Of a DNA stretch of 64,000 nt, positions 16,604-43,729 are shown piece by piece (the first letter of the stretch is position 1; every line of letters starts with the position of its first letter). The notes beneath the pieces are model-generated. The model was not told where the DNA came from. It did not search any database and was given only the letters and a program-made list of their open reading frames with translations. Source of the stretch: Owenia fusiformis (Eukaryota); contig CAIIXF020000001.1 of assembly GCA_903813345.2 (NCBI GenBank), positions 6,014,001 through 6,078,000 on the forward strand, read 5' to 3'. The position numbers and the translations under genes are program-made.

Positions 16604-18651
16604 TTATGATGCAAGCCATTGTTGAACTGCAGGTCCTACATCTTGTACTAACTGTGCAATCAACTCATACTTTTCAATAGCATCTTTAGGTACACTTGCA
16701 ATTAGTTCCTGACACATGTCTTTCAGCTTTTTATCAGGCTGCTTGCTCAGTCCATCTTGAGCATCCTTAAGACATTTGTATATGATCCGTAGCTCTTCAG
16801 TTTCGGCTGCCTGAATGATTCCTTCTCTCTCAAGCATGTCGGAGATGGTGAAGACATTCTCAAAGTCTAACATGACATCATCAATGGATGTTGCTTTGAG
16901 CTTTGTAAGAAGCCAATTGAGATTACAGAACATATGCTGTTTAACATGCGTGAGCCCTAGGACAGGAACCAGAACACGGCTATGTATGGGTAACTTGAAG
17001 AGCTTCCTCAGGTTAACTGCAGATGTAGGTTGTGGCATTGTGAAGTCTGATCCTGGCTCACAGAACATGTCAACAAAGTCTCTATGGAGTGCCAATGTGA
17101 AGTCGCAAGCCTCCTCTGTGATACTACTCTGCTCCTGGCCTGGATATAATATATTCAGTTCTCGGGAAACACCTTCCATAAAGCTATGGTGAAACCATCC
17201 ATAGACCAGCCTTCCATGCTCCATGTGCCTTATCAAGAAGGGATGCAGGTCCAGCATCACTTGGGAGAGAAATATTGAGGGCAGATGTTTCATGGGAGTG
17301 TTTCGCCCCTTTGATATTGCATTCATGACATCACTGTTGCGTGAGAGGAGATCATGTAGTTCTACTTCGCTAATCCCTTCTCCTGAAATGGTGATGTACG
17401 CCATTGTATATTTCAACACTGTAGCATCATTGCTTTTTTGCAGTCTTTTAATGAGGACCTGAATAGATTTCTGTAGAGTGGAACTGAATTCCAGATTTTC
17501 TCCACTTGATACATCAACTAGGTGATGTGTCAGTAGCTTCAGATGTAGAAGTGAGTGAGAACTCGCAGCCTCTAGCAAAGCTTCCAATTTCTCCTTCTGC
17601 ATAGTCATATTGGTGTTCTGAATCACAGAGCTCAAGATTTTCTCCTTCTCAGCCTTTGATAATGGCTGTACTTCTAAGTATGCCTTAGCTTCAGGTACCT
17701 TCTTCTTAAGTTCTTCGATGATATCAATGGACCCCATAGATGATCTTGTTGACAAAATCACTCTGACAGTTGGTGGCAGATCTGTGATAACATTTAGGAT
17801 ATTCATGGCCTGATCCATAGGGCTCAGCTGATTAATGCCATCTAATAAAATCACTAATTGTTTATTCTTCATTGCCTCATCTCCATAGCCTAGATGATTA
17901 ATGAGCTTCTTCAAGTAATCAGCCATACTCTGAAAACTTGTTGTGTCCACTGTGATTCCAGGGAAGGGGATGGGAATGTTGAAAGCCACGTGTATTTGTG
18001 TACACAGACTCTTCAATAAGTTGATAACGATTGAGCTGTCTGAGGTTAGCCCTATGAAGCGTAGTAAAGTGACAGTTCTTTCCTCTCCTAGATGAGTGGG
18101 AACAAGCTGAGAGAGTTTTGCCATCAGAAATGACTTTCCAATCTCTGGCAGACCATGAATGATGAGAGGATGTTTTTCTTTACTGTTTAGGTAAATCTTA
18201 ACTTGTGCTATGATTTCAGCCTGCTGGTAGAAGCTTTCACACATCACCTTGGCAATGCTAGTATGCTGGAGCACCTCCATGTAAATTGGGCTAGTCATCT
18301 GACCAGCAATTTTCATCACACTTGACTGGATTGCAGTGGTAAAATCTGACAAAACATCTTGCTGTATCTTCTCTAAATATTTCTCATGATCTTTATCTTT
18401 GATAGAGATGCCATTTTTGCTATATGGTACAGTATATCTCCAGACCTTCGAAGTGTTGCTATTCTTCACATATTGACGAAGATCATCCATGTTCTTTTGC
18501 TGAATTTTTGTTGTATTCTGATCAGTGCTTACATCTAGCAAATCTGGGTTTTGCTCCTTATTATCAGTATCTTTGAAGTGGCGCTGGTATACATAGCAGC
18601 CTGGTGTATTGCTGTGGAGGGGTAGGGCCATGTGAATTTCATTCTGAAGCT
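16604..18651 (-). CDS. NWD1/NWD2-like STAND protein, last exon (NACHT + winged-helix region; stop codon with no WD40 repeats)
   Basis: 2048-nt exon; Walker A HGLPEIGKS; LRFIGLTSDSS; Walker B LVILLDGINQL; GISEVELHDLLS; WFHHSF; FCNLNWLLTKLKA. All are NWD-family motifs. Confidence 0.9.
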
Positions 18652-18859
18652 CTGAAATCATTGTTAAATCATATTGTGAAATACAATGTATGAAAAGCAA
18701 TTATTGAGCCACATTCTCTATAATTGTGGTTTTATTGTAGTCTTTAACTTAAATGCTGAATACATAATGCCTCTGGAAGCACTGAAAGCATGTTTCTAAA
18801 CTTTATTTAGATAAGCAGAAAATTGGAAAGCAGTTTGGTTATAGGATATCTGCTTGTAC

Positions 18860-32717: not shown

Positions 32718-34669
32718 ATGTAGGTCGTATTTCGTATTTATTTTACTGTTCGAACAAGAGGTAAAGAAGTGTCAGATCTACTGTACATTATCACTGGTAA
32801 GTATCAAGCGAAGGTTACGGCCGTCACCTTCGCATTTAAGATGGCGGACAGGAAGTATTTATTTCGATATTTTCAGTTTTCATGGAATTAACTATTTGAA
32901 AGTTGACGTAATGCTTTGATATCATTTGAACTAAACCAAGCTTTTCTCATATGACTAACAAAGATAGCCTAGAGCCATCTTCACCCCATGCAAGATATTG
33001 CATCTTTCATCCTAAAAAGTCACACGTGCAAGATGAGATTTAGTTGTGACATCACTTGTTTAAAAACATCAATAATATAGCAACAAATATACTGAGTTTT
33101 TGGTTTCATGATCCTTACCATATCATACATTTCCATTAACCTTCCATTAAGCGTCACCGTACAGCTGATGCGTCGCCGCACAAATCTGATCTTTTTTAAA
33201 TAGCCTACACACAATGAATGGTTATTTGCTGAATCTTCGCCCGTTCTAAAATGTGTAAGTAACAAATACATATTCTCATAAAAATAATCCATTCTCTCAG
33301 ACTGTAGGAAAAATAATAACCAAACGAAATGTGGAAAAATCACTTTGGTCGATTATGTGGGCCGATTCACTCAGGAAAAATCCGGACAGTGCTCGTAAAA
33401 CTTTTATTATGTTTAAAACCATTTCTAAGAGAATGCTGTTTTTATTTCACATGAAATCGTATTTGTTTTCATCAAATTAATTTTTCAAAACCTTTGCCAT
33501 AGTTTTTTGCTTCAAAGCAGTCAATTTGCGTCACCGTACAGAAAACTGTACTCCGCTATTTTTTGACGCTGTGTTGAGACGATGGTTAGGCGTGTATGTA
33601 CAAAATAGCCAGCCACTCATTTAGCACACCATTGGAAATCCCACCTCGTCTTCCTTCTCATTCTTTCGCGTAAGTGAACGCATGGGACTTTACAGAAATA
33701 ATATCATACCTGCCATGTTATTTTCTGGTACACAGTGAAGAATGATGACATTTGTGTAGTTCCTTATTTTTTCTGGAAAATATGTCCTTGTATCTTGTTC
33801 AAGTGAATTATAAAAGAATTGAAGGCGGGATTGAACGCAATTCATTGTTACATGTAACTTGGAGAAGATTTCGAAAATTGAAAAGGTGGTATATTTTAAA
33901 TGTTTTCTTGAAACATCAGCATTTCCTGGAGTTGTGTCATTGGTCTCTTACCAGGTTTACTAAAATGAGATAATGCAAGGATACTTTGCTGAAAAAGCAA
34001 AAGATACCCACATACCTTTTTATACCATGCAGAAAATAGCATCGTGAGTAAATGCAGTTTTTTCAAAAATGTTTCCTTGAACTGTACCTCGTTAGGAAAC
34101 GAAAATAGTAAACAAGCAATACAACGTACACGCACGTTTTTGCTACGATTTGATAAAATGACATACAGTACACAGTTGGAAAGCTTTTCTCGCCTTTTTA
34201 ATCTCCTTTTCAGAAGAGTTGATTCAGACGCCCAGGGACTAAGAAATTAGTGTAACGCGGAAAATTTTAATAGTAGACAACAAAATATTAACGACGATAG
34301 ATGTTTTTGTCAATAATTTGAAATATCCAGCCACACATACATCACGGCATTGGAAAGCTTATGCCCGTCTTTAATCTCTTTTAGAAGAATCGTACGTTCG
34401 TTAATATTTAAGCCTATATAGTTCTCTTCAATCTGATTTATACGAAAATTAAACTCATGTGACTTATAAAAGAATGCGCACACAACTAGAGAAAAATGTT
34501 TGGCATTATGTAATTTATTGTTCTACTCTAGGCTAACTAATAACAACAAAATTACAGGAAAATTGATTCATAGAATGAAATGAATCAATTACCCCCACCA
34601 TCCGGAGAGGTTACATTGCATCGAAAGAACAAACCATGTATGAATTATGGCACCGTGGTGGGGGGGAGG

Positions 34670-34838
34670 GAGCCAAAAAATTACAAGCAATATAGCATTA
34701 TAACTAGCACATGTTGTCCGCTGCAAGGACAGTAGCAGAATAAGCAGATAACAGCCAGACACAAGAATTTTACATAACAGTTGAAGCATGCAGGAAACAT
34801 ATGTTGACCTGGTGATGACCCAGGCTGTCTTGAGAAAC
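34670..34838 (-). repeat. Direct repeat A2 of the YR retrotransposon
   Basis: Identical to 37772-37940 (offset 3102). Confidence 0.95.
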
Positions 34839-34844
34839 AGTGCC

Positions 34845-35210
34845 GTGGCGTAATGGCAGCCTTCTGCCTAGGGGGTACTCCAAGTTCCTTTGATATGCCC
34901 ATAAGCAGTGTGTCTAAGGGCCAGTTGCTTTGAAGTGGATTTGGTAAACCCATTTCTAAGTGTAATATCCTGATAATGTTAAGATATAATTTAATTGATG
35001 ATGGTCTAATGTGGTCACTAAGAAATGCCACATAACGAAGCAAATTAGACTGTGAAACAGGTGCTGGTGAATATCCCATTAACTTGCAGAAGTCTAGATA
35101 TTTAGCAAGATGTGCTGCATAAGTGCGCTTGGTGTTGTCTGTGTAGGTATATCCCCTAAGCTCTATGATTTTCCTGTCCAGGCTATTTTCCAGCTGTGCC
35201 ACTCTTTGAT
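34845..35210 (-). pseudogene. Tyrosine recombinase ORF3, N-terminal core-binding part only (truncated after ITP)
   Basis: YTDNTKRTYAAHLAKYLDFC...YVAFLS...SSIKLYLNIIRILH...GLPNPL...RQKAAITP, then runs into repeat A2; no catalytic R-HxxR-Y residues. Confidence 0.85.
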
Positions 35211-36842
35211 CTGAGGAAGAAGAAAAAGCATGGACTTTAGAGTCATATGGTGATGAAGAATCATTGCAGATAACTCTGAATTAGGGAAAATTCCTGGATA
35301 CAAAATAGCCTCTAATGTTAGAAAGTTTTTGGGCTCATTTAGTCTGGAAATTACATCTGGTAGAATATTGAGTTTCCCTGGGACATGAACGGCTCGAAGG
35401 TCAAAGTTATACTGAACAGATATCCAAAACATATGTCTCAATATTTCCATTATACCAGGATGTTTTGTTGTACCCCGATTAACAATAGTCATGGCCACTG
35501 TAGAGTCAGTATGAATCAGAATGCGTTTATTCACCAGTACATGTTTCCATCTAAGGATGGCAAAATATACTGAGAGGACTTCTTTATAATTAATATGATA
35601 GTCTTTGTATTGAGGTACGTCCATAGCAAAATTTACATACATCCAGTCTCCTTGATAAAAGAGGCCAGATGCTGTATTTGAAGCATCAACTTCAATGTCA
35701 ACAACAGGCTTACTGTCCAATATAAGCGCTATGCCATTGAATGAGTCAATACAGTTCAACCACCACTTAATATCCTCTTTGAATTCTTTCCCGATTTTGT
35801 ATTTATGTTTATTTCGTTTTAGCTTGCATATAGCATCAAGAACTCTCCTGGTGTAAATTCTACCGCCACGGATGACTTGTGCAGCCCAACTTAGCTTCCC
35901 AGCTAGCGATTCTAGCTGGGTACGTGTAGCTCGTTTAAGTAGCAGATATTGATTTAGCAAATTTTTAAAGTCTAGCAGTTTTTGTTGTGGTAACAGCATT
36001 TTCATTTTTTGCGAGTCTAGTTCCACCCCTAGAAATGTCAATACCTGAGACGGACCATCCACTTTACCCCAACTAATTCCAAAGCCGAGGTCACGAAGCA
36101 GTCTAATTAATGAATTTAAATGCTCCATGCATTCCTCTTGGGTTTGTGCAATTATCAAAAAATCATCCAAGTAAACATAGATGTCACTGCAGTTGTACTT
36201 TCTCTGCATTACGCGTTTTATACTTTGAGTGATACGATGGAATATTTCGGGCGATTTGCGAGCCCCAAACATAAGTCTTGTATCAATGATGTAATCATAT
36301 TTTTTACTATTGTTGAACTTCCATTTTAATCCAGCATATTGATAGTCTTGGGGGTGTATAGGAACGTATCGATACGCTTCACTTAAATCGACTTTGCACA
36401 TCCAGTATCCAGGATGTAGAGCCTTTGTTGCATCATTAATTGTGGTATACCTATAAGATTTAATTGTAGCATAATCGTTGACAGCACTACCTTGCGGTTG
36501 ACTGCAGTCATGTATTAATCGTATAGCCTCCGAATTGGGTTTTGGCACTGACCCTAATGCACTAATGATCGTTGGTTTATAATCCACTTTGATATAACGA
36601 TTATTGTCAATTTCTTTTATTATTTGATTTTCCACTTTCCACTTGTTCTCAGAACAAATAGCTGAATTATAATTGTTCATTTCTGCAGAGGTTGGGAAGG
36701 CATCCTCATCAATTATTCGAAATCCATTATAAATACCATTTAAAATAAAGTCCTTGTCATTATCTTCAGATAGTTCATTTTCCCATTTACTATAATTGAG
36801 GGGTGAGTTAATAGGTCCGTGAGAGGGGTGTTTTAGTTTCCC
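35163..36842 (-). CDS. Reverse transcriptase / RNase H (DIRS/Ngaro type), intact
   Basis: RLIHDCS, KVDLSEAYR, LMFGARKSPEIF, YLDD, FLGVELDS; RNaseH motifs DAS, HINYKE, HTDS, HVPGKLNILPDVISR. Confidence 0.95.
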   Translation of the reverse strand, partial: GKLKHPSHGPINSPLNYSKWENELSEDNDKDFILNGIYNGFRIIDEDAFPTSAEMNNYNSAICSENKWKVENQIIKEIDNNRYIKVDYKPTIISALGSVPKPNSEAIRLIHDCSQPQGSAVNDYATIKSYRYTTINDATKALHPGYWMCKVDLSEAYRYVPIHPQDYQYAGLKWKFNNSKKYDYIIDTRLMFGARKSPEIFHRITQSIKRVMQRKYNCSDIYVYLDDFLIIAQTQEECMEHLNSLIRLLRDLGFGISWGKVDGPSQVLTFLGVELDSQKMKMLLPQQKLLDFKNLLNQYLLLKRATRTQLESLAGKLSWAAQVIRGGRIYTRRVLDAICKLKRNKHKYKIGKEFKEDIKWWLNCIDSFNGIALILDSKPVVDIEVDASNTASGLFYQGDWMYVNFAMDVPQYKDYHINYKEVLSVYFAILRWKHVLVNKRILIHTDSTVAMTIVNRGTTKHPGIMEILRHMFWISVQYNFDLRAVHVPGKLNILPDVISRLNEPKNFLTLEAILYPGIFPNSELSAMILHHHMTLKSMLFLLPQIKEWHSWKIAWTGKS

Positions 36843-37744
36843 TGGTGTTCCTTCTGGGGGTGTTTCTTGAAACATTGCAGGCATAGATGCTCGAATCTGC
36901 AGTTTTCAAACCTGCAGATTCCTTTGTTGTAGTTACGACAAATAACATTGCCGTTAGGTGCTGTTACATTATTTTCAGCCCTCCTGTTTGTTGTTACCTT
37001 CTGTTTCAGATGGGTACTACAGATATGAGGGATATCTGTCCCCCATGCAAATCCTTTTAAAGCCTGGCGATATCTATATTCATCGTCATACAAAATGACA
37101 CTTTGCCAGGTATAGCATTCTGCCAGTTCATAGATGTTAATTTGGTATTCCAAGTAGGCTGCTACCTCAAATGAAGTATTGGTGGATATTAGATGAGTCA
37201 AAATTCTGTTACTCGCCTGCCCCCACTGTTCGATAGATACAGATTCGAGTCGAGGTTTCCTTGACGTGCGCATTACCAAGCTGGTCTCCCCGTCAGCGGC
37301 CATGACTTTGTCTTTGTTTGTAAGGGAACGCAAAGATGGACGCACAAAGTCTACTATCTTTAAATATTGCTCACCTTTGTTAGCGCTTGCACTGGCAGAT
37401 TGAGTTGTGTTATCCTGCGTACCTATCCCAAGTTGCTGTAAAACTTCGGATAACGAACGATCACCCTCTGCCTGTCTCTGCTGGGGGGTTTCTTCAGCTG
37501 ATGAGGACGTTTGTTCATCGACTGCAGCGAAGTTAGGGGTCTCGGGCCCTTGTCCAGCTTGCAGGACGGTCAAGCCTTTTTCCAACAGTCTATATTGTCC
37601 TATTGGCTTGATTTTCATTGCCTTCAGGTCATCGGGCAATGCCATACTTTTTAGTGACATCATGTTGGTAAATCCATTGTCACTGAGTGTCTTGATAGTG
37701 TCTGGTGATAGGCACCACTTCTCCAGGAAGTCTTCAAATTCCAT
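36833..37744 (-). CDS. Gag-like ORF1 with N-terminal SAM-like domain and C-terminal Cys/His finger
   Basis: ATG at 37744 just inside repeat A1; YTWQSVILYDDEYR motif; CRNYNKGICRFENCRFEHLCLQCFKKH. Confidence 0.88.
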   Translation of the reverse strand: MEFEDFLEKWCLSPDTIKTLSDNGFTNMMSLKSMALPDDLKAMKIKPIGQYRLLEKGLTVLQAGQGPETPNFAAVDEQTSSSAEETPQQRQAEGDRSLSEVLQQLGIGTQDNTTQSASASANKGEQYLKIVDFVRPSLRSLTNKDKVMAADGETSLVMRTSRKPRLESVSIEQWGQASNRILTHLISTNTSFEVAAYLEYQINIYELAECYTWQSVILYDDEYRYRQALKGFAWGTDIPHICSTHLKQKVTTNRRAENNVTAPNGNVICRNYNKGICRFENCRFEHLCLQCFKKHPQKEHQGN

Positions 37745-37771
37745 TATTTGGTTATTTATCCAAGGCAAAAA

Positions 37772-37940
37772 GAGCCAAAAAATTACAAGCAATATAGCAT
37801 TATAACTAGCACATGTTGTCCGCTGCAAGGACAGTAGCAGAATAAGCAGATAACAGCCAGACACAAGAATTTTACATAACAGTTGAAGCATGCAGGAAAC
37901 ATATGTTGACCTGGTGATGACCCAGGCTGTCTTGAGAAAC
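37772..37940 (-). repeat. Direct repeat A1 (5' end) of the YR retrotransposon
   Basis: Identical to 34670-34838. Confidence 0.95.
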
Positions 37941-40659
37941 CCCTCTCAAGTTTAAATTAATTTCACCATGAAATAATAATAAAACCAAGCTATAAACTTT
38001 AAAATAAGTTTCTGGATTGCAAATTCAGAAATTCTTTCATAAATACTGGAGGGCAAGAAGGGTCACTTTTGGTAAAAGGTGTTTTCGTTTGAATCTGGCT
38101 CGAAATGAGGCAAAATCAAATGGGCATAAAGGTCGGTTACACAATATACTGATCCCCAATCAGGAGGTAATACCAGGCGACATACATTAAAAAAATAAAT
38201 AAATAGGCACGGTGATCTTGCCCAAGTGCTCTTCTTACACCGCTCTTCCCTAGGCGCATACGTGTACATTGAATAGCCTTTTCTTCTTCAAACAATTAAA
38301 TGTTCAGGGACTGGGAAATTAAATGTAACGCATTGAAACTTTTAATATTCGACGAAAAATATTTCCCCAGACCGACATTTTGTAAATTGTTTTGTGTAAT
38401 GATTTAACAGAGACATATGATAAAAAACATGTTTTATATTGCCTCTTAAATTGCTAGTCACATATACTGCATACCATTGGAAAGCTTACCTCGTCCTCTT
38501 TAATCTCATTCATACCCGAATCAGCGTGTCATCATATGTTGACAAAAATATTGGCAATTAAGAGACATACATGTATAAAACGTAGTTTTGTGTTTTATAA
38601 TGAGAGATAATTCAAAGAAAGTAAATTGCACAAATCTTGTTGAAACATGTTGAGATAAGAATTCAATGCAATATACTTTTCAGATAACTTGTGAACGTTC
38701 CAACATTTCCGCGAAAAAACAGATCGCTATTTGTATGGTAAGTTAAACAACACCCAAGCTAAGCTCAAGCCGATGATCGCCATCATGGTTTGTATTGTAT
38801 GGTTCCTACAATGACCAAGTTCTTGACAATTATGCACTATCCAATCAACACAACAATTCAGATAATGTTCTTAGAAAAACAATTTATTGCTACTTAAAAA
38901 TATAAGAGTTGGAGCTTTGAGAGAGATGACATTGTGTAAGAAAGAAAGTAAGCGATTGCAATAGATAAAGCATGCACATATCCAGTTTGTAGTCCCCCAA
39001 CATCAAACTCAGTGAATGTTTTAATTTGATGCCATCTTTAGCATTGATGATATCAAGTTAATCCAACTAATCACTGTCAAAAAGAACAATTTACACCTTT
39101 ACCAATGAAATACACCACTAGGAAATAATAGCTTGAAATAAGCCATAAATAAATCATATGATAGTTGTTTTTACATTATCCCATTGAGACTATTCTTAAG
39201 TTTGGCTAATACTCTATTAACATGTTTGTAGCCATAACATTCAATGTATGTACTTCACTGTATAATATATAGTTTTTGCCTTCACCTCTCTTAACTTGTG
39301 AATGTAGGTTGTGAAATTTGGGTTTTCTGACTTGGTTTTGCTCCTTGTTGCATTGACACAAACTCATGTACAAAATGTACAATAAATAACCCCTTTAATT
39401 GGTGTCTCAATGTTATGCAAGTAATACAAGAAAACTGATACATAATTAGACATATGTATGTAATAAATAACACAAATGAGATTACTGTGGTTTGTATGTA
39501 ACTAACATAACATACTTAATAAATTATGACAAAAACATTCAGAAACGTAGTCTGTCCAAAAATATATCAGATCATTTGCACATAAATAACAAATAAATAC
39601 AACAAAAATGTTAGTTTACATTTTTACTCTGGGTCATTATTACCATGTTTTACACTACTCACATGCATTGATTGAATCATTGGAGGTTCTGTCACATCCA
39701 CGATTACTTCTTAAATTGGATTGAAACATGACCCAATAATGACAAACTATTTACATATTATTTAATATTTATACATTACATAATAGTGTAAGACAGCAGC
39801 TCTGTGCATGAACTGGATTTGCTTTTATAATGCTCAAGTCTGTGCTTGTAACAAAAGTTTATGCTTGTGAACACAAGCTTGATGAATTATAATCAATGTT
39901 TGCTGCTGCAATCTTGATGCACAGTTTCAATAAAGTACAGCTGTTCCATAATAACATATTAACAATTACATTTTACAAAATAAATTATGTTAGTATAGAA
40001 CTAGTAGTAGGTTAATGTCAATGAATAAATCTCATTTTGTGCTATTTGATGCATGAATATCATTACTTGTCAACATTGCACTGACTTATGATTACACTGT
40101 AACACAAACTAAACTGATATACATATACTGCTTATAATTTGGCATTTTTAATAATGAAAATCCATTATTTATAGAGATCCGTTTTCCAAGGGCATTATAG
40201 AGTGTTTATATACAAATTATCAAGCAAAGTAAAAAATTACAGAGAAGATACCTTCTCTGAACTGTCCCTGGCAGTAAATAATACAAAGCCCTTGAGAAAA
40301 CCCTATGGGACAGTCATTTTCAATTTGCATTGAAAACATATTATTTTATATTCTGTAGGCCTATGTATTAAGCATTGACACAAAGTACATGCTCCCAGTG
40401 GAGTTGGATAACATATCTGGCAATACAAAATGGCAAGCAACTCATATTTTCAAGTGACCACAATAGTTATATATCGGAAAATTATAAGCCCTTTCTGTGG
40501 CTGAATAAAAACATCTTATGACTTAGTTACAATTGTGTAAATCTAGAGACATATTTTATTTTACACATAACTTATGAAACTGTTTTTTTTCTCAATAACA
40601 GATGAAAATTTTGTACTGTATTGCGTTATAACTGTTATTCCATAGTTAGCATGATATTC

Positions 40660-42275: not shown

Positions 42276-43486
42276 CTAGAATTTTCTTAAACGCTTAGCC
42301 ATCTCTTGGGTAAAGTCCATATCATAGAAAGAACGTTTGCCATACCTGCCTGCATCATGAGTGGCTTGCGCCTGTAGGGCAGTTGACATGGTTGAGAGTT
42401 CTAGAGGACGTGCCCCAAGTAGACCAGGATTTGTGGCGAGGGAGGGGGCACAGGCAAGCTGACTGGGGAGACCCAGGAGGTCTAACTGGGACTGGACTGC
42501 TGGTTGACCAGCTGGAGTGTCAATAAACTTCATGAAAGGTTGTTGTGCTTGCTGCGAGAGCATACCTAGAGACTGGGCCTGTGAATAAGCTTGCATGGGT
42601 GTGATACCTTGGAGTGTGCCTAGACCACCTGCTGATAATCCTTGAACCCCAGGCATGGCTGGGATGGTTGGTACACCACCTAGGCCCTGGACTCCTGTCA
42701 GACCTGGTTGCATACCCTGAACCTGTTGCATCCCTTGTATCCCAGGCACTTGCTGCATACCTGCATAACCCTGGGGGAGTCCTGCAAGACTCTGTTGTAG
42801 ACTGGGTACACCGGGGATTCCTTGTAGACTTGGTAATGTCTGTAGGCCTGTCATAGTGGGAATTCCAGGCATGAGTTGCTGTAGGGAGGAGGGTTGGATT
42901 GACTGGGTAGTGGCTGGGATGGTTAGACTACGCCCAGTGTAGTTGACTGCTGCTGCAGCTGCAACATTATGACCAGGCTGCCCCAAAATTGAAGCCTGTG
43001 GAGAGGCAGGTCTGTATGGGGACCCTGGGGCTGGAGGTCTCATCTCTAGGCCATTTGCATCTGGCTTCATTGGTGGACTACCTCTCTTAGCAACTGTCCA
43101 AGGTTTGGCCCATGGCTTAGCATTGATCTGATCCACTATGTGCTTCAGCCTGGGATTTTCCATGATACCTCTAGGCCCCCCTGGAAAAACTACTTGAGGT
43201 CTGAGTGGAGGGGTGGCAGCTGGAGCAGGTTGATGTCCATTCATGATTGGAGGTAAACCAGGAGGGCAGCCTAGTAAACCATCTGCTCCTGGGGGATGTA
43301 GCACCTGACCAGGAATGATGGGCATGCCTGGTGGCTTAGCAAGCATAGGTACACCAGGTCTAACTGGGGCCCCAGCAAGTTTGGGAGATACAGTGCCTAA
43401 CTGGAGGGCCTGGTCTGGAATTCCTACAGCTAGTGGGGAGACTGGAGGTGTGGAAGCATTCACAAATGGCCCACCTATCTTAGCTT
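42276..43486 (-). CDS. DUF3715 (TASOR/TEX15-like) gene, last exon: P/Q/G-rich low-complexity tail with basic C-terminus
   Basis: gtttcag|AA GCT AAG...; 1211-nt open exon ending GKRSFYDMDFTQEMAKRLRKF*. Confidence 0.88.
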
Positions 43487-43729
43487 CTGAAACAGATAAA
43501 ACAGGTTAAGTTGTTGTTGCACAACCAAATAAAATATATTTGTATTCTGAGTGGTTCACAGATTCCTAATACTTTATCATGTATCAGATTATTGCCTCAT
43601 ACGTTATTGTTTATGCAAGTTGGGCAAGTTGTTTTTAGTGTTTTTAGTTGCAAAATAAATGTTTGATGTTTATGGATTGAACATGACTTTTTCCTCTTGC
43701 TAATACTATTAACATGTAACATTACTTAC

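Follow-up and report, generated by a model that had tools for sequence, protein, structure and literature searches.

Ngaro elements, tyrosine-recombinase (YR) retrotransposons of the DIRS order, have been described as having the structure A1-[ORFs]-B1A2B2, the ORFs being open reading frames (PMC8547959, PMC7192593). The available portions of the published descriptions present these ORFs only as separate or overlapping, mention no splicing of gag to the recombinase, and leave open how the overlapping, ATG-less ORFs of YR retrotransposons are expressed. An element of this type lies on the minus strand of a 64,000-nucleotide (nt) stretch of the genome of Owenia fusiformis (GenBank assembly GCA_903813345.2, contig CAIIXF020000001.1, positions 6,014,001 to 6,078,000), here called the window, to which all positions refer; unless stated otherwise, features of the element are on the minus strand. 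It is an internally deleted Ngaro-type retrotransposon, and its order of gag, reverse transcriptase/RNase H (RT/RNase H) and recombinase is one that we take to match Ngaro rather than DIRS1. The likeness to Ngaro consists of this gene order, of direct repeats at both ends, of a junction between the B end and the start of A in sequence reads, and of the lack of any Pfam match to a DDE integrase (rve) or a protease among the window ORFs. It differs from the published structure in that the window copy, which keeps A1 and A2, has neither B1 nor the catalytic half of its recombinase. The family to which this copy belongs appears, with a probability of roughly 0.8, to express its recombinase by splicing the N-terminal, SAM-like module of gag onto a recombinase exon. 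The searchable literature yielded no description of gag-to-recombinase splicing for either Ngaro or DIRS elements; that literature does not include the articles of Goodwin and Poulter from 2004 and of Poulter and Butler from 2015, which may bear on novelty. A conserved intron would give a concrete answer to the question of expression left by the published accounts.

Spliced subgenomic mRNAs are known from retroviruses and other retroelements. In avian sarcoma/leukosis viruses the splice donor of the env mRNA is located inside gag, so that Env begins with a few Gag codons, and in foamy viruses the pol mRNA is a spliced subgenomic RNA. The env gene of murine leukemia virus is expressed from a spliced mRNA (PMC5778647), and a spliced, gag-only mRNA is found in Ty1/copia elements (PMC5580714). 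Retroviral env mRNA is the nearest known mechanistic analogue of the splice proposed here. Common to both would be a single promoter, an unspliced RNA serving as genome and as mRNA for Gag and Gag-Pol (here Gag-RT), and a spliced subgenomic mRNA for a downstream gene; with the avian viruses the element would further share the use of the gag ATG and of the first gag codons. The differences are that the downstream gene is an integration enzyme and not an envelope protein, that a whole folded domain with its linker (97-188 residues) would be shared instead of a handful of codons, and that the element is neither a long terminal repeat (LTR) nor a DDE-integrase element. The spliced mRNAs of Ty1/copia and foamy viruses are similar in that splicing sets the product ratio from a compact retroelement genome, but in neither is a Gag N-terminus known to be fused to an integration enzyme.

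Candidate splice sites in the Owenia element

The gag ORF (36833..37744; 303 codons and a stop, ATG at 37744) is followed by an RT/RNase H ORF (35163..36905; 580 codons, no ATG needed; Pfam RVT_1 9.6e-17 and RT_RNaseH 8.9e-7) and by a third frame, ORF3, which opens at 35280 and overlaps the RT ORF by 118 nt in its -1 frame. The sole Pfam match of ORF3 is Phage_int_SAM_4, the core-binding domain of phage-type integrases (6.3e-5), and no catalytic domain is present. ORF3 has no ATG at its 5' end, as the initial annotation had noted; the residue taken there as a methionine is the V of 'RVAQ', encoded by GTG, and the first ATG is codon 68 (35079), which falls within the conserved core-binding domain. 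The gag ORF carries a CCCH zinc finger near its C-terminus, for which the Pfam match is below the cut-off (zf-CCCH_4, E 5e-4), while that of the gag of one relative, L008, is above it (zf-CCCH, 9.6e-5).

Within gag lies a candidate 5' splice site, AAG/GTGAGC (37367..37378), with the cut between 37375 and 37374 and the GT at 37374-37373. As the distance from the gag ATG to the cut is 370 nt, the donor is in phase 1. The candidate 3' splice site, CTTTTTCTTCTTCCTCAG/AT (35211..35229), consists of a tract with 16 pyrimidines in 17 positions followed by CAG; its AG is at 35212-35211, the first base of exon 2 would be 35210, and since the junction codon in the ORF3 frame is 35211-35209, the acceptor is in phase 1 as well. 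Removal of the intervening 2164 nt in silico places gag codons 1-123 in frame with ORF3, the joined codon (G+AT) encoding Asp, and the reading frame stays open. The RT/RNase H ORF would be contained wholly in this intron, save for the 48 nt at its end, which include the stop. All of these features (the two sites and their coordinates, phase 1 at both, the length of the intron, the in-frame fusion through Asp and the position of the acceptor within the RT/RNase H coding tail) had been put forward in the initial annotation, and recomputation returned the same values.

Splice sites were scored with a rough position-weight matrix of our own, its consensus frequencies not being taken from a published scorer. 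By this matrix, and with the whole minus strand of the window considered, the donor ranks second among 3350 GTs and the acceptor first among 3499 AGs, and each is the highest-scoring site of its kind within the element. After this acceptor, the highest-scoring acceptor-like site in the element (6.6) is found inside the 169-nt repeat, at 37824, upstream of the gag ATG, and at 34722 (both minus strand); an intron in the 5' untranslated region is possible at 37824.

Conservation of the candidate splice sites in related elements

The initial annotation had suggested looking for both sites, and for their phase, in related elements. They are strongly conserved there, the phase of the acceptor agreeing with that in the window in 63 of 67 loci and the donor being in phase 1 in 19 of 20. 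An exhaustive HMMER search with ORF3 gave 1814 homologues at E<=1e-3, the best 150 of which were examined for their layout; in 135 of these the homology to ORF3 does not extend upstream of the acceptor codon. From an alignment of 27 full-length relatives and the ORF3 fragment of the window, 74 related loci were fetched from metagenome contigs and mapped using the window gag and RT and one full-length recombinase. Judged by eye in the alignment, the full-length relatives have a conserved R...K...HxxR...W...Y pattern in the recombinase, presumably the tyrosine recombinase motif.

The acceptor sample comprised 67 loci, the window among them, in which the start of the recombinase is present with no less than 45 nt of sequence ahead of it (7 of the 74 were dropped); these represent 48 families at >=70% amino acid (aa) identity. 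The acceptor was defined as the best AG within -32 to +12 nt of the start of recombinase homology, and 1005 windows tiled over the RT ORFs served as controls. The phase found in the window is shared by the best AG in 45 of the 48 families, compared to 447 of the 1005 control windows (binomial p ~5e-13 by family). In 31 of the 67 loci this AG is also the top-ranked AG of the whole locus, where 1.09 would be expected from position alone, and an acceptor score of 4 or more is reached in 70% of the loci and in 3.1% of the controls. A profile of 47 family representatives reads (Y)n-N-C-AG/G, with the C present in 41 and the G after the cut in 30 of them. The peptide encoded upstream of the acceptor shows no conservation among the loci, and the frame of the recombinase relative to RT, determined for 56 loci, is -1 in 27, +1 in 22 and the same in 7. 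Because the upstream peptide is not conserved and the RT frame varies, the acceptor signal is one at the nucleotide level, tied to the frame of the recombinase and independent of that of RT.

For the donor, 20 loci (14 families) could be used, in which both the ATG of gag and a recombinase further downstream are preserved; L012, L017, L038 and L064, being 5'-truncated, were excluded. In each locus the highest-scoring GT from the ATG to the conserved core of gag was taken and compared with control windows, of which 39 of 79 had phase 1. The single exception among the 20 loci is L014, whose family mate L004 conforms. Scores of at least 8.7 were obtained for 16 of the 20 loci (11 of the 14 families) and for 6 of the 79 control windows, and in 11 of the 20 the donor is rank 1 of its own locus. 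Among the 14 family representatives the consensus is G at -1 (13/14), R at +3 (14/14), A at +4 (11/14) and G at +5 (12/14). In six families the donor lies no more than 4 nt from the position homologous to 37375, and in the others it lies 11-134 nt further upstream, within a variable linker where the alignment is unreliable. Judged from the sequence, the proposed intron has canonical GT-AG sites, a pyrimidine tract and compatible phases, all conserved in relatives.

When the relatives were spliced in silico, 12 loci yielded open frames of 423-513 aa; the introns measure 2228-2399 nt, the first exon 97-188 aa and the second exon about 313-329 aa. The remaining loci are cut by contig ends or degenerate, and L051, L054 and L057 fail in-silico splicing. 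One locus, L030, in which no RT lies between SAM and recombinase, had been considered as a retro-copied spliced form; the two are, however, in separate ORFs about 530 nt apart, and the locus is an internal deletion. At four loci (L002, L034, L052 and L060) a second gag or recombinase tail is found within a few hundred bases before or after the element, and the relatives are therefore often arranged head-to-tail; the second tandem copies in L002, L034 and L060 are outside the donor counts.

Proteins with the fused layout and the shared N-terminal module

A SAM-like N-terminus followed by a linker and a recombinase, the layout that the splice would produce, is present in 4 of the best 150 relatives. 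These are a partial protein of the brachiopod Lingula anatina (XP_013410293.1), with a match to the gag N-terminus at E 3.8e-8, a 452-aa protein of the mollusc Patella vulgata with a full recombinase (XP_050388701.2), a protein of the cephalochordate Branchiostoma belcheri with a weak SAM match (XP_019631166.1, E 0.2), and one ENA entry without a name. The Lingula protein aligns to the in-silico spliced product of the window over 235 columns that span the junction, at 36% identity and E 2e-42. Word-index protein searches yielded no match for ORF3 among longer proteins and none for gag residues 1-123. When the SAM profile was compared to longer proteins, eight matches but no new fusions were obtained; seven of the eight are matches to proteins with the gag core, and the other (P0173) is a gag N-terminal fragment without the core.

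A SAM fold had been proposed for gag residues 1-65 in the initial annotation, and several lines of evidence now point to such a domain in residues 1 to about 65 (37535..37744). A profile of 14 aligned homologues, compared to PDB sequences, retrieved the SAM domain of Caskin-1 (E 6.1e-7) and other SAM domains. Pfam SAM_1 was matched at E<=1 by 4 of the 14 homologues (best 8.2e-4), and the window gag N-terminus itself gave no Pfam SAM match. AlphaFold2, when supplied with the alignment, predicted five helices at a predicted local distance difference test score (pLDDT) of 84.4; on the single sequence the prediction was unusable (pLDDT 45.5). Nearly all of the top Foldseek matches listed are SAM domains, at template modelling (TM) scores of about 0.54-0.74, a root mean square deviation of about 2-3 Å, 57-70 aligned columns and 12-26% identity, the E values, owing to the shortness of the domain, being no better than 0.13. 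ESM Atlas gave SAM families just at 0.81-0.88, which serves as a lead only. The gag N-terminus is thus predicted, by profile and structural model, to be a SAM fold. It shares the five-helix fold with the SAM domains of Caskin-1, Eph receptors and tankyrase and differs from these in sequence, to which the 12-26% identity testifies. Many of the SAM domains matched by Foldseek are known oligomerisers according to their entry titles, which name dimers, oligomers and filaments.

In two families the N-terminal module is not SAM-like. Gag residues 1-188 of the L007-L013 family and 1-139 of L051 have sub-threshold Pfam matches only and look, by eye, heptad-rich and coiled-coil-like. The donor is conserved in both, so the module appears to have been swapped while the splice architecture was kept. 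The replacement of one oligomerisation module by another would fit a role in self-association.

Proposed expression strategy and its alternatives

According to the model proposed here, the full-length RNA would serve both as genome and as mRNA for Gag, and Gag-RT would be made from the same RNA by recoding at the gag stop. The recombinase, which has no start codon of its own, would be made from a spliced subgenomic mRNA, using a phase-1 donor located where the variable N-terminal portion of gag ends and a phase-1 acceptor a few bases ahead of the conserved recombinase start. The intron presumably removed in vivo, of about 2.2 kb, would carry the gag core and RT/RNase H. The product would consist of an N-terminal oligomerisation module (SAM-like here and in most relatives, coiled-coil-like in two families), a linker and the tyrosine recombinase. 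Since splicing would proceed from a shared start, Gag and recombinase would be identical over their first ~100-190 residues, and the shared module may bring the recombinase to Gag assemblies or aid its multimerisation.

With respect to Gag-RT, the RT ORF of the window copy is in the -1 frame of gag with an overlap of about 70 nt, and the heptamer GGGAAAC (36836..36842; G GGA AAC in the gag frame), directly before the gag stop, is a candidate site for a -1 shift. No stable frameshift-stimulating hairpin was predicted in the 95 nt downstream of it (-8.2 kcal/mol, z +1.28 against shuffled sequences, pseudoknots being outside the model). In the relatives, a single in-frame stop separates gag from RT in seven loci (L004, L006, L014, L019, L034, L048 and L067), which suggests read-through, and three others (L037, L038 and L051) combine an RT in the -1 frame with A-rich heptamers. 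The initial annotation had envisaged an element that makes Gag, Gag-RT by frameshift and a SAM-recombinase by splicing, all from one promoter, and had suggested that the common N-terminus could package the recombinase into particles. The heptamer, the conserved splice sites and the fused proteins agree with the scheme of three products; what does not hold is its application to the window copy, which cannot express a recombinase.

Several observations weigh against the proposed splice. One contig run and three raw RNA-seq runs labelled with this species (27-44 reads each, ~1-4x, from the 6-12% of each run that was read) were available, with joints listed from three reads upwards, and the joint 37375 to 35210 is not listed in any of them, the power being very low (about six reads over the donor and four over the acceptor). 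The strand of the transcripts cannot be assigned from these reads. The splice scores derive from a rough home-made matrix, and choosing the best site in each window inflates the apparent motif, though the controls address this inflation. The metagenome loci are without host assignment and several copies are degenerate. An ATG occurs within five codons of the recombinase start in 10 of the 67 loci. As to the database proteins, those with the fused layout are not fully independent evidence, because they are automatic gene models and may lean on the same GT and AG signals; furthermore, an RT C-terminus and a recombinase are joined in one protein in 12 of the best 150 relatives, so that some relatives, considering also the seven same-frame loci, may make an RT-recombinase fusion in addition or instead. 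Coverage in the three RNA runs, in which exon bins are 2.5-8x more covered than intron bins (by hand arithmetic on 27-44 reads per run), is compatible with splicing, but the reads are too few.

These RT-recombinase proteins bring up the alternative that the recombinase is the tail of a Gag-RT-recombinase polyprotein, reached by a -1 frameshift or other recoding in the 118-nt overlap, with the GT and AG left unused. Such a route is suggested by the position of ORF3 in the -1 frame of RT and overlapping it, by the extensive overlap often seen between the YR and RT/RNase H ORFs of such elements (PMC6681497, as far as the available part of that article goes), and by the 12 RT-tail proteins and 7 same-frame loci already given. 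The proteins may, however, represent frames merged by ORF callers, and the overlap of the window copy offers no productive slippery heptamer: the only match to X_XXY_YYZ is TTTCCCT at 35289, ahead of the stop from which ORF3 opens, and a shift there meets TAA. The frame between RT and recombinase varies among the loci, which no one recoding mechanism would accommodate, and the phase of the intron does not vary. A polyprotein would also leave unexplained the conservation, at both places, of canonical splice signals with an unchanging phase, and is considered very unlikely. Marginally less credit is given to initiation of the recombinase at a non-AUG codon, namely the GTG at 35201-35199 (which has an A in position -3 and a G in position +4), or to its translation from a separate internal transcript; the splice-like sites would then be incidental. 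The closest relative, P0001, has M at the position of the V in the window, and the loci with an ATG within five codons of the start point in the same direction, as do the many database proteins that begin there, though ORF callers would choose that start anyway. Against this stand the 44 of 67 loci in which the upstream extension of the ORF contains no ATG at all, and the distance of the GTG, about 2.5 kb, from the start of the full-length RNA; no evidence of a promoter was found, no search aimed at promoters having been made, and both the phase-1 donor in gag and the SAM-recombinase proteins would lack an explanation.

The sites might also be true splice sites with another purpose, such as down-regulation of the genomic RNA or processing imposed by the host, the fusion being a functionless by-product. 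For a by-product, the conservation of the phase across 45 of 48 families is unexpected, all the more as it keeps a long recombinase frame open, with products of 423-513 aa in 12 loci, and most copies have no other recombinase start; the chances of this explanation are rated as slight as those of a non-AUG start. Expression of the recombinase from a spliced mRNA that begins in gag is the preferred explanation.

A wider formulation is advanced tentatively, with somewhat less than even confidence. In a clade found in at least brachiopods, molluscs and cephalochordates, the integration enzyme might be made only from a spliced mRNA, with a Gag module (SAM or coiled coil) grafted onto it, and might co-assemble with the capsid protein; neither a subgenomic-mRNA strategy nor a Gag-tethered integration enzyme would have been described before in the DIRS order. 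The proposed splice itself would mean that a division of labour like that of retroviruses, in which unspliced RNA serves as genome and for Gag and Gag-RT and spliced RNA for a third gene, has also evolved in a lineage with neither LTR nor DDE integrase. The shared oligomerisation module suggests a simple route by which the Gag-RNA or cDNA complex might acquire the recombinase. There are consequences for annotation too, in that ORF-based pipelines would miscall the recombinase, giving it a false start or fusing it to RT, and gene finders would list SAM-recombinase 'host genes' that are products of transposons.

Structure of the window copy and other features of the window

The element copy extends over 3531 nt (34447..37977). 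Its ends are set by a head-to-tail joint, 37977 to 34447, which is present in RNA reads (4 reads with 3 starts, run X18) and in high-depth contigs of run X2 (838x); the loose end of the X2 contigs with this joint corresponds to 37968-37977 of the plus strand. Such a joint would be expected from the B1-A2 junction of a Ngaro-type element, or from a circle or a tandem. From 5' to 3', the element consists of a 37-nt leader, a 169-nt direct repeat (A1, 37772..37940), gag, RT/RNase H, the recombinase N-terminus, a second copy of the repeat (A2, 34670..34838), 100% identical to the first and joined directly to the truncated recombinase ORF, and a 3' terminal B region (34447..34669). In this last region a high-copy block, 34447-34595, behaves as a B repeat, its depth being about twice that of the internal region, with a loose end at 34595 in both X18 and X2; the repeat blocks overall have about twice the read depth of the element interior, and the B end is joined to 37977 in both reads and contigs.

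ORF3 is cut off by the 169-nt repeat after about 148 codons, the deletion junction being 34838/34839, where A2 adjoins it. What remains of exon 2 (34839..35210) covers the N-terminal core-binding (SAM-like) domain of the recombinase only. A family contig of run X2 (3659 nt, 517x) spans 34839-37801 and continues with 697 nt of differing sequence past 34839, which identifies the window copy as an internal deletion without the catalytic half of the recombinase. Having lost this half, ORF3 cannot give rise to a recombinase, and the spliced product of the window copy itself would be a truncated protein. The element is present as a single copy within the window.

An empty-site paralogue that would fix the insertion point was not found; the search returned just a 64-nt related segment shared by both flanks. 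Related segments of 41-64 nt flank the element at 33603-33643, 34321-34361 and 38448-38488, and as they are found on both sides, the element sits within a host repeat. Both ends of the element adjoin sequence containing ATT, and the joint is ambiguous by three bases, a pattern that would be more in keeping with a short recombination core than with a target-site duplication. At 37937, at the start of the 5' repeat, one base is skipped in a part of the RNA reads (3 of 8 in run X18, 5 of 6 in X19 and 1 of 2 in X20), which is a family polymorphism or a difference in homopolymer length.

Just downstream of the element are nested inverted repeats, 32202-32365/32552-32715 (164-nt arms, 90% identical) and 32371-32430/32465-32524 (60-nt arms, 92%), which look like a foldback element or a miniature inverted-repeat transposable element (MITE). 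Elsewhere in the window, on the minus strand, a 409-codon open frame (42276-43505) has no Pfam match and a best ESM Atlas value of 0.81, without a usable lead. A 698-codon open frame at 16604-18700, also on the minus strand, matches NACHT (3.2e-7) and an NWD1-like winged-helix domain (3.5e-11), and is predicted to be an NLR-type gene or a large exon of one.

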